A stretch of 64,000 bases of DNA, from the sequence record OQ626344; one strand, written 5' to 3'. Of the stretch, positions 4,740 to 6,082 are shown piece by piece. Source of the stretch: Escherichia phage S127 BCL3. The position numbers and the translations under genes are program-made. Each line of letters opens with the position of its first letter. The first letter of the stretch is position 1. Below the pieces are notes generated by a model, which was not told where the DNA came from, did not search any database, and worked only from the letters and a program-made list of their open reading frames with translations.

Positions 4740-5010
4740 ACGGGCAATTTAACATAATACCCATTATGCGCACCACTGGCGATACATACAGGGATTGATA
4801 ACATGGGTTACTGTTTACGCATATAACAATTATATTTCTTACTATTTGTGTGGGATATAGTTAGCAACCAATAGATTAGATATTGACCTGCGGACTTCTG
4901 ACCGTCCAGACGTCTAAACGCCCACACAGCAAGGATTATACATACATTTCTGAATGTAAACAAGGCCGCAAAAATGCTACCATACCAGTTTGTAAATTTT
5001 TCATGCAGCA

Positions 5011-5095
5011 CTTGACAAAGAGGAGAAAAACTTGTCTGACACAATGTGACAAAATTACCACTTTTGACACTTTTACCTTTGACGCAATATGACAC
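5011..5095. repeat. iteron-like array of TGACA(C/A) half-sites
   Basis: Six TGAC(A/G)C(A) motifs at roughly 11-24 bp spacing. Confidence 0.45.
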
Positions 5096-5175
5096 AATAA
5101 CGGCTGTTACTATTCCATATCTCACTGTTTACGCATAGGCTGTTTACGCCTGAACAGTTTACACAGAGATGATAA

Positions 5176-5469
5176 GCCATGCCATTCGTTTGCATGAAAA
5201 CAATTAACAAGCTAACAATTAACAAGTTAATAATCTTTCGCTGGCTATGCCAGGTGACTAGGTCACCCCTTCGGGCGTTTCTATGACATAATATAAAAGC
5301 AGGGCAACTATTAGAAGATCTATAGTTGCCTTGCTTGTTATGTCATGATTAACTAAATACAAGGCAACTATGATCTGAGTAATAGATTGCAGAAAAACTA
5401 TCACGGGGGTGATGGTTACTGCTTTTATATTATGTCGCGACTCCGTCGCGCCATGCCATTCGTTTGCAT
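5176..5469. repeat. composite element: 20-bp direct repeats flanking 18-bp inverted repeats
   Basis: GCCATGCCATTCGTTTGCAT at 5176 and 5450; GACATAATATAAAAGCAG at 5285 inverted at 5419; internal GGCAACTAT/ATAGTTGCC dyads. Confidence 0.7.
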
Positions 5470-6082
5470 AGTTGCCTTATTGTTACAGGTAAAACAATTA
5501 CATTATTAATTATTTCTTATCTTTCTCTTAGTCATCTAATGATTCCAGTCAGTATAGTAATGTACAGTAAACATTAGACGACTAAAGATTTCTCTGTTTA
5601 TGATAACTCATCGTGATAATTTCGGACTGTTTACGAAAAATGTTGACACCTGAGCTGATTTATGTTATGCAGTTTACACGAATAATTATTTTATGCAGGT
5701 ATTGACTATTCCGTTATTCTGTGGTTGGAATAAATACTTTGCAGACTATAGAATGGCGTTCGTACGTGAATTCTGAGATCTGTCGGCTATAGTTATACTC
5801 GATTTTTCGCGTAGAACACGCTTTCGATGCTGTGTAAGTGTATGACTTATAAAGATTTTTAGTTGTTGACAAGATATTGGAGATATGCATCAGGTTAAAA
5901 TTTGTGCAATAGCTGCATTACGTGCACTTTTGGGAGAGAAAACGGGTAAAAATGGACTTGCTACCACACAATGAAAAATTATGCAATAGTTATTTTCCAT
6001 GTATATTTGTACAGTATGTGGGATTGATAGCTAGTCAATTATTCCACTTGCCAGGTAGGGCCGTTTATGGTAGGAGAAGAGC

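Follow-up and report, generated by a model that had tools for sequence, protein, structure and literature searches.

Variable arrays of short direct repeats at the terminal repeat boundary of Vequintavirus genomes as candidate sites for DNA maturation or packaging

Repeated short motifs beside the position cut by terminase are the design of lambda cosB (R1-R3), of the P1 pac hexamers and of the SPP1 pac site (pacL/pacR), and the iterons of P1, lambda and pSC101 are units of 17-22 bp with a two-turn spacing. A further layout is found at the genome ends of T7 (NC_001604), in which, analysed with the same tools as used below, a 160-bp direct terminal repeat (DTR) is followed, 15 nt on, by 12 CCTAAAG-type heptamers, one every 13 bp (175-332), a looser array stands ahead of the right repeat (39606-39700) and the heptamer is also found inside the repeat. 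The present analysis concerns three arrays of short direct repeats, here called A, B and C, in a non-coding region of Escherichia phage S127 BCL3 (OQ626344), of which a stretch of 64 kb (the window) was studied; all coordinates are those of this window unless another genome is named. These arrays are not a new kind of system. They are real, they have conserved cores and a variable copy number, and they abut exactly on the boundary of the DTR. At the left genome end, arrays A, B and C are innermost. A terminal repeat has already been reported for the genus, and what is new is the array context at its boundary. The elements involved are the following.

4578-5036, no strand: 459-bp equivalent of the DTR, the sequence present at both virion DNA ends in close relatives
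5012-5017, plus strand: TTGACA (the 'A0' unit), inside the DTR, with a purine run next to it and the right cut 19 nt on
5037-5098, plus strand: array A, five TGACAYAAT-type units at 5037, 5047, 5065, 5080 and 5090, all direct, the first on base 1 after the DTR
5125-5164, plus strand: array B, three ACTGTTTACRC-type units at an exact 15-bp spacing (5125, 5140 and 5155)
5176-5195, plus strand: conserved 20-mer GCCATGCCATTCGTTTGCAT, right limit of the hypervariable A+B segment, with an exact repeat at 5450-5469
5199-5234, plus strand: array C, AACAATTRACAAGYT with a 15-bp period and 2.4 copies (Tandem Repeats Finder)
4811-4820, plus strand: solitary B-type unit CTGTTTACGC, inside the DTR
5627-5636, plus strand: solitary B-type unit CTGTTTACGA, with its GTTTAC core in 14 of 14 relatives
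5643-5679, plus strand: TTGACA (5643-5648) and the B-type unit CAGTTTACAC (5670-5679), with a variable spacer and both motifs retained

Megablast of positions 3600-6200 returned 121 phage records with 90-98% identity, nearly all of them Vequintavirus (rV5-like myophages of E. coli); some are mislabelled 'Campylobacter' and carry Vequintavirus in their taxonomy line, and the window is that of an rV5-like coliphage of this genus. Between about 3600 and 6130 there is no credible gene in the annotated relatives, and since the plus-strand genes stop at about 3570 and the minus-strand genes at 6132, transcription converges on this non-coding box. It is the same locus as the 2.5-kb 'non-coding' box of rV5, located between genes 163 and 164, with about 92% identity to rV5-derived records. 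In the rV5 genome paper (Kropinski et al. 2013; PMC3606486) this grey box is marked only as being without open reading frames (ORFs), neither terminal repeats nor arrays are described for it, and 104425-105475 is given among the skew switch points, which are ascribed to changes in the direction of transcription. Sixteen Vequintavirus loci were fetched for comparison, 14 of which were aligned with the window. In these 14 relatives, the identity of the box amounts to 93-100% per 25-nt bin, versus about 75-85% for the flanking genes; the box is thus more conserved than the coding genes on either side, the reverse of the usual pattern, and the flanks also differ in the presence or absence of genes. 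Three hot spots break this conservation, at 4505-4555 (left of the DTR), 5040-5155 (right of the DTR) and 5205-5280 (array C).

The position of the DTR is given by homology. The Gotham record annotates a repeat_region at 1-459 and 136567-137025, and when both Gotham ends and the left end of EdH4 are aligned to the window, the repeat falls on 4578-5036. In a distant blastn search, the records of Gotham, EdH4, bov11CS3 and YN3 all start at one base, 202 nt before the start of the query, and several of them hold the region twice. A terminal redundancy of 458 bp has been described for EdH4 and HdK5 (Korf et al. 2019; PMC6563267), and a 514-bp DTR of the T7 type has been established from two-fold coverage and PhageTerm for Klebsiella phage KPP-1, a Mydovirus of the same subfamily (PMC9862379). 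The boundaries of KPP-1, independently located, fall at positions homologous to those of the window: with the cut written as a slash, the left boundary lies in the same register (GGTGCTA/GACGGACAG in KPP-1 versus GCTGCCA/GGCGGACGG in the window), and the right cut comes after TTGACA and a purine run, at 18 nt in KPP-1 versus 19 nt in the window. The A0 TTGACA is unchanged in the 14 relatives. Within the window, the left boundary reads ...GTGCTGCCA/GGCGGACGG and the right one ...AAAAACTTGTC/TGACACAAT, the latter in the context CTTGTC/TGACACAAT, where TGACACAAT opens the TGACA array. GTGCT is found 1-4 nt left of the left cut in the window, in KPP-1 and in Phapecoctavirus Mt1B1_P17, which belongs to a different subfamily and has a 328-bp DTR. 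By its homology to Gotham, EdH4 and KPP-1, the phage should have a DTR of the fixed-end type, and positions 4578-5036 very probably represent this repeat or, in the concatemer, the junction. An exact scan of IMG/VR with a 28-mer of the DTR found a single contig.

The motif families of the arrays, their order and their orientation recur in 16 of the 16 Vequintavirus genomes examined, and in all of these relatives the first A unit starts exactly at the right DTR boundary, with TGACA units in the window at -24 and at +1 to +54 relative to it. Array A comprises four to eight units in the relatives, spaced by 9 (19 times), 10 (12 times) or 11 bp (seven times), and Tandem Repeats Finder reports a period of 10 for it at 5080-5099. 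Array B, which starts at +89 from the DTR, has the consensus ACTGTTYACRY / RAYTGTTYACRY and from one to about ten units, at a spacing of 15 bp (24 times) or 16 bp (28 times). The segment from the DTR to the invariant GCCATGCCATTCGTTTGCAT measures 109-211 nt and in all relatives consists of array A followed by array B, with unchanged orientation; GCCATGCCATTCGTTTGCAT itself has just two copies in the window, and both are present in all relatives examined. Array C varies from one to about 4.5 copies, or a different AT-rich stretch takes its place. At the solitary B-type copies (4811, 5627 and 5670), the GTTTAC core is present in 13-14 of 14 genomes, with varying adjacent bases; at 4811, for instance, the GTTTACGCA core is retained in 14 of the 14 aligned relatives and the preceding two to three bases vary.

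What distinguishes these motifs in the window is clustering rather than abundance. Exact copies of CTGTTTACGC stand at 4811, 5125 and 5140 and are the only ones in 64 kb, CAGTTTACAC being found at 5155 and 5670 and CTGTTTACGA at 5627; with up to one mismatch, CTGTTTACGC has seven matches versus 2.7 expected, four of the seven in 4811-5636. Using test windows that were picked after looking at the data, TGTTYACR has 5 of its 16 window matches in 4800-5700 (binomial p = 2e-6) and TGAC[AG]C has 4 of its 44 in 5010-5100 (p = 5e-7). TGACRCAAT with one mismatch shows no window-wide enrichment (28 matches versus 35 expected). A scan of the window and of 59-137 kb of Gotham found clusters of the A and B motifs only beside the DTR. 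Unit calling was pattern-based, and the analysis was repeated in a pattern-free manner by means of a k-mer census and the autocorrelation of 13 distinct array segments. GTTTAC is the commonest 6-mer in this census, with ACTGTT, TTTACA and TGACAC also among the top ones, and the autocorrelation peaks at lags of 9-11 nt in the first 60 nt and of 15-16 and 30-32 nt in the last 100 nt. The identity at these peaks is only about 0.4, in the sense that a core of about six bases is kept and the remainder is free. Among 46 distinct B units and 31 distinct A units it is mainly the spacers that differ, with the 5-6 bp cores persisting. Generic periodic scans of IMG/VR (three GTTTAC at 15 bp; three TGACAY at 10 bp) were uninformative, since each returned more than 120 unrelated tandem repeats, many of them in giant-virus bins.

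A preliminary description of this stretch had listed most of these repeats and likened them, as helically phased repeats, to replication-initiator iterons or operators. The listed repeats are all present and locally enriched (the CTGTTTACGC family, the TGAC(A/G) units and the duplication of ACAATTAACAAG), and the positions of the CTGTTTACGC family agree, apart from a variant placed at 5671 that lies at 5670. The six TGAC motifs, said to be about 11-24 bp apart, correspond to units at 5013, 5037, 5047, 5065, 5080 and 5090 with spacings of 24, 10, 18, 15 and 10, which makes the estimate roughly right, and the tandem duplication of ACAATTAACAAG (5200-5211 and 5215-5226) belongs to array C. Helical phasing describes the TGACA array, with its period of about 10 bp, but not the 15-16 bp arrays, in which successive units fall on opposite faces of the helix. 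Conservation in related phages, named there as a check, is borne out by the 16 Vequintavirus genomes, where the arrays are kept in kind and position; as for the spacing, the periods of 9-11 and 15-16 bp recur, whereas the spacers and the copy number vary. Regarding function, non-coding arrays with conserved 5-6 bp cores and free spacers follow the pattern expected of protein-binding sites, which is the part of the iteron or operator proposal that stands. An operator array distributed over the genome is excluded by the restriction of the clusters to the vicinity of the DTR. Furthermore, since the arrays start at base 1 past the right DTR boundary, that is, at the physical left end of the packaged genome, they point to maturation or packaging at least as strongly as to replication.

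How does this arrangement compare with the described systems? As in SRL and SRR of T7, a short DTR is closely followed by an array of a short motif in direct orientation with a period of 10-16 bp, and extra copies inside the repeat are shared as well; the looser array of T7 on the other flank may have a counterpart in the same-strand motif families left of the DTR. Unlike in T7, the motifs here, which are unrelated to the heptamer in sequence, belong to three families instead of one and differ between the two flanks, the genome is that of a 137-kb myovirus using the host RNA polymerase, the copy number is strongly variable between close relatives and the first unit is placed at the very first base after the repeat. 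With the cos and pac sites the locus has in common that a short motif is found several times at a distance of no more than about 100-150 bp from the cut, in this case one TGACA 19 nt to the left and five immediately to the right. However, lambda, P1 and SPP1 make cohesive ends or headful series instead of direct terminal repeats, the binding of the small terminase subunit is demonstrated in those systems whereas the sites proposed here are candidates, and the arrays are missing in a sister genus with the same boundaries.

The favoured reading, to which a probability of roughly 40% is given, is that the arrays are cis-acting protein-binding sites of the concatemer junction that would serve DNA maturation or packaging. 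The indel hot spots on both sides of the DTR, the uniqueness of the clusters in the genome, the absence of any conserved ORF crossing the arrays and the same-strand motif families on the left flank are counted in its favour. The determinants of packaging specificity in T3 and T7 lie no further than 5% of the genome from its termini, and the maturation of their DNA begins at the concatemer junction (PMC3276506). The units are predicted to act in cis in the maturation of the DNA, as sites bound by one or several DNA-binding proteins with sequence specificity. Their likeliest role would be either to dock or position terminase, or a factor assisting it, where the DTR is cut or nicked at its right boundary, or to control the synthesis that duplicates the terminal repeat. 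One good site may suffice, with extra copies being gained and lost by slippage or unequal recombination at a recombinogenic genome end, and such a turnover would explain the hypervariability of the arrays within an ultra-conserved region.

Several observations weigh against this reading. T7 is limited as a precedent because, to our knowledge, the function of its arrays has never been established, and a literature search on them gave nothing usable. Arrays A and B are absent from KPP-1 in spite of its homologous DTR boundaries, and they are absent from Phapecoctavirus too, so that they cannot be the core conserved recognition signal; they are not conserved wherever the same cut site is used, as a terminase site should be, and are instead a Vequintavirus-specific elaboration. 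Within the genus, array B is reduced to a single unit in two relatives, which makes its multiplicity dispensable. A better-conserved candidate for the core recognition signal than the arrays is the motif AAATATC at +44 of the DTR, which occupies +44..50 in the window and KPP-1 and +45..51 in Mt1B1_P17, and which is the best cross-family candidate for a conserved end-recognition element. Finally, two papers call Vequintavirus genomes circularly permuted or headful on the basis of PhageTerm (PMC8407724; PMC13211470), in conflict with fixed ends. The left side of the DTR, to which AAATATC belongs, contains these elements.

4530-4577, plus strand: left-boundary context, with AC(A/T)GGAGTGCTGCC twice (4530-4543 and 4563-4576), the second copy ending just before the left cut
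4621-4627, plus strand: AAATATC, +44..+50 of the DTR as counted from its left boundary; 4096-4621 has six copies on this strand, this one included

Left of the DTR, the flank represents the inner side of the right genome end, and its motif families are different from, and more dispersed than, those of arrays A and B. Of the 14 plus-strand copies of AAATATC in 64 kb, six fall in 4090-4630 (p = 1e-9), and CCTGAAGAG occurs four times on the same strand left of the DTR (3936-4475; p = 1e-7). The flank next to the left boundary is an indel hot spot, measuring 44-46, 79 or 95 nt in the relatives between copies of ACAGGAGTGCTGCC, and the boundary motif GGAGTGCTGCCA/GGCGGACG is retained despite these indels.

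Among the alternatives, a replication origin, although unlikely, fares best. According to it, a phage initiator would bind arrays B and/or A as its iterons, unwinding would take place at array C and the AT-rich stretches, and a palindrome with inverted A-type arms to the right of the arrays would be the site of initiator assembly. Two palindromes lie there.

5253-5267, no strand: small palindrome GGTGACTAGGTCACC, present or absent among relatives
5283-5437, no strand: large compound palindrome, whose outer arms (5285-5302 and 5419-5436) open with an A-type unit (TGACATAAT and ATTATGTCG, respectively)

As in the iteron origins of P1 (oriR), lambda (ori), pSC101 and T4 (oriE), there are tandem direct repeats with conserved cores, and AT-richer DNA and palindromes alongside: the AT-rich 15-mer tandem comes directly after the arrays (5199-5234, about 70% AT), and a large conserved palindrome with arms that resemble binding sites exists in both Vequintavirus and KPP-1. 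T4 oriE also illustrates that iteron-bearing origins are possible in lytic myophages. Unlike the iterons, the units of the arrays are of 10 and 15-16 bp, hence shorter and differently phased, with periods of 9-11 and 15-16 bp instead of at least three direct repeats of about 17-22 bp at a spacing of about two turns; their copy number ranges from 1 to about 10 without apparent cost, and their location is bound to the end of the genome, an origin model assigning no role to so exact an abutment on the cut. The accessory elements of a classical iteron origin are not clearly seen either. The relaxed DnaA box TTWTNCACA is found once in 3600-6130, at 4159, away from the arrays, and in the same interval there is no enrichment of sites for IHF (one consensus site) or LexA, of the Pho box or of Chi. 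The AT content is about 70% in array C and reaches its maximum of 76% at 5500-5550, with no sharp AT-rich block that would make a marked unwinding element. Nine flanking proteins gave no Pfam match and correspond to PHROGs of unknown function, no initiator or candidate binder being evident among them, a result that would still be compatible with an initiator peculiar to the phage. The GC skew changes sign in the region, in accordance with the presence of 104425-105475 among the rV5 skew switch points, but this switch coincides with convergent transcription, as the rV5 paper notes (PMC3606486). Separately, unit B was considered as a DnaA box, given that GTTTACACA matches at 8 of 9 positions, and was rejected because its invariant positions (GTTYAC) are not those that matter in DnaA boxes.

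Less likely again is that the arrays have no function of their own and are microsatellite-like expansions, generated by slippage, template switching or unequal recombination at the DTR junction and merely tolerated. The hypervariability of copy number and spacers in a region otherwise 93-100% conserved would be accounted for, as would the indel hot spots that flank the DTR on both sides, the lack of the arrays in KPP-1 and the indel hot spot that Phapecoctavirus, which has no such arrays, shows next to its DTR on the right. Shigella phage CM1 (MK962749) provides a further argument in the same direction, since at 1099-2195 it contains a tandem duplication of 524 bp comprising the whole DTR and the first 65 nt of array A; the second DTR copy starts exactly at the left DTR boundary, and the record may reflect either a genuine duplication of the junction or an error in the assembly of the terminal repeat. 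Against a purely neutral origin stands the persistence of the 5-6 bp cores in those distinct B and A units, and likewise in aligned orthologous units, together with that of the core in the solitary copies, whose neighbouring bases vary. Moreover, none of the 16 genomes lacks B units altogether, and each has several A units, with the order unchanged.

A lower probability still, making it a doubtful explanation, is given to a cluster of elements for the host RNA polymerase, with the A units as extended -10 elements (TGnCAYAAT) and TTGACA and GTTTACA as -35 hexamers, driving a short inward non-coding or primer transcript or retaining the polymerase at the end of the genome. In its favour, TGACATAAT fits TGnTATAAT at all but one position, TTGACA and TTTACA are known as classical -35 hexamers, all units point inward from the left end, a plus-strand terminator-like hairpin follows at 5396-5417, and T7 has the E. 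coli promoter A0 and phiOL within or just beyond its array. Nonetheless, in a promoter scan 5000-5200 contained no -35/-10 pair and promoter-like sites in 3000-7000 did not exceed those in shuffled sequences (12 versus 10.2), the TTGACA at 5012 has its nearest -10-like hexamer 22 nt away, C instead of T occupies position -12, and there is no plus-strand gene downstream, the genes from 6132 on being on the minus strand. A protein-coding reading of the arrays was rejected, because the frames across them differ between relatives in strand, position and length and none is preserved. The probability left over beyond the favoured reading and these three rivals goes to unknown roles.

It would be a long shot, within the reading as maturation or packaging sites, to regard the array variants as a lineage 'barcode', each variant being matched to its own DNA-binding packaging or replication protein. 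If so, when closely related rV5-like phages infect together, the machinery of each phage would act preferentially on its own genome, comparable to the packaging specificity of T3 versus T7, and the turnover of the arrays would be driven by competition among co-infecting relatives and not by drift. In more practical terms, rV5-like phages are common in collections for therapy and biocontrol, their genome ends are inconsistently reported, and the non-coding box has stayed unexplained since 2013. Placing the DTR inside this box yields candidate cis elements for packaging or end formation in a large group of myoviruses, namely GTGCT before the left cut, AAATATC at +44, TTGACA with a purine run 18-19 nt before the right cut, and the abutting arrays. 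These could be of use for correcting the orientation and annotation of genomes and for the design of packageable synthetic genomes or transducing vectors. The Vequintavirus arrays also provide a natural series of copy numbers with which to approach a question that is decades old, namely the purpose of the terminal-repeat arrays of T7.

The comparison with Phapecoctavirus extends beyond the lack of arrays. In three genomes of this genus, an indel hot spot lies 30-110 nt right of the DTR in a terminal region that is otherwise at least 97% conserved, and hypervariability just inside the left end thus seems to be a general property of these genome ends. Compared with two other Phapecoctavirus genomes, that of phage tuntematon has an insertion immediately to the right of the DTR, in which the boundary-like GTGCTCAACAT...CGCCCCCAAAA recurs. 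Both DTR boundaries of Phapecoctavirus share RTGCT(T)/(C)AAC, a sequence likeness that suggests one nuclease specificity for both cuts. The left-most gene of Mt1B1_P17 encodes a homologue, about 90% identical, of the 139-aa protein encoded at 6132-6551 (minus strand), which is the first gene inside the left genome end of the window and has no Pfam match. In Phapecoctavirus (Stephanstirmvirinae) this homologue (about 90% amino acid identity) is likewise encoded by the first gene past the DTR, after a repeat-rich non-coding stretch of about 900 nt.

The large palindrome at 5283-5437 is 93-100% identical in the relatives and has a single-strand DNA fold of -57 kcal/mol (z = -8.85). It contains GGCAACTAT at 5303 (plus), 5322 (minus) and 5363 (plus), and a fourth copy stands just outside, at 5468 (minus). 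The exact 20-nt direct repeat GCCATGCCATTCGTTTGCAT brackets it at a distance, a layout like that of a small inserted element, yet there is no relative without it. In KPP-1, an analogous inverted repeat, also nested, is located some 310 nt to the right of the DTR, and its arms start with GCGACACAATAAC and carry GACACAATAAC. In blastn, the window and KPP-1 share short blocks only; two 11-mers common to both (ACAGTTTACAC and GACACAATAAC) have a chance-level frequency and were not counted as evidence.

Some further observations concern the DTR and the rest of the non-coding box. A scan of 3000-7000 against Rfam, at E-values up to 1, gave zero matches. Inside the DTR, two tandem 7-1-7 palindromes, TGAGAATACCTATCA and TGAGAATGGTTATCA (4705-4719 and 4723-4737), resemble the E. 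coli Fur box (TGATAATnATTATCA) with 11-12 of 14 matches, and closer copies exist in the DTRs of KPP-1 and Mt1B1_P17 (AATGAGAATAATTATCATT); sites of this kind with up to three mismatches are enriched in the non-coding box, which has 8 of 36 (p = 7e-5). Near the left limit of the box, within 3680-4030, there is at 3713-3740 on the plus strand a near-consensus sigma-70 promoter-like site (TTGACA-16-TAAAAT with an upstream TG, 11/12). The following approximately 300 nt are 94-100% identical per 25-nt bin, mostly 100%, in the 14 relatives, with flanking genes far less conserved. A candidate RNA from this promoter has a fold no more stable than that of shuffled sequence (z = -0.78) and no Rfam match, and the conserved stretch might encode a non-coding RNA or a small peptide, or act as a DNA site. 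Lastly, GATC is scarce in 3600-6130, with four sites versus about 12 expected from its window-wide density.

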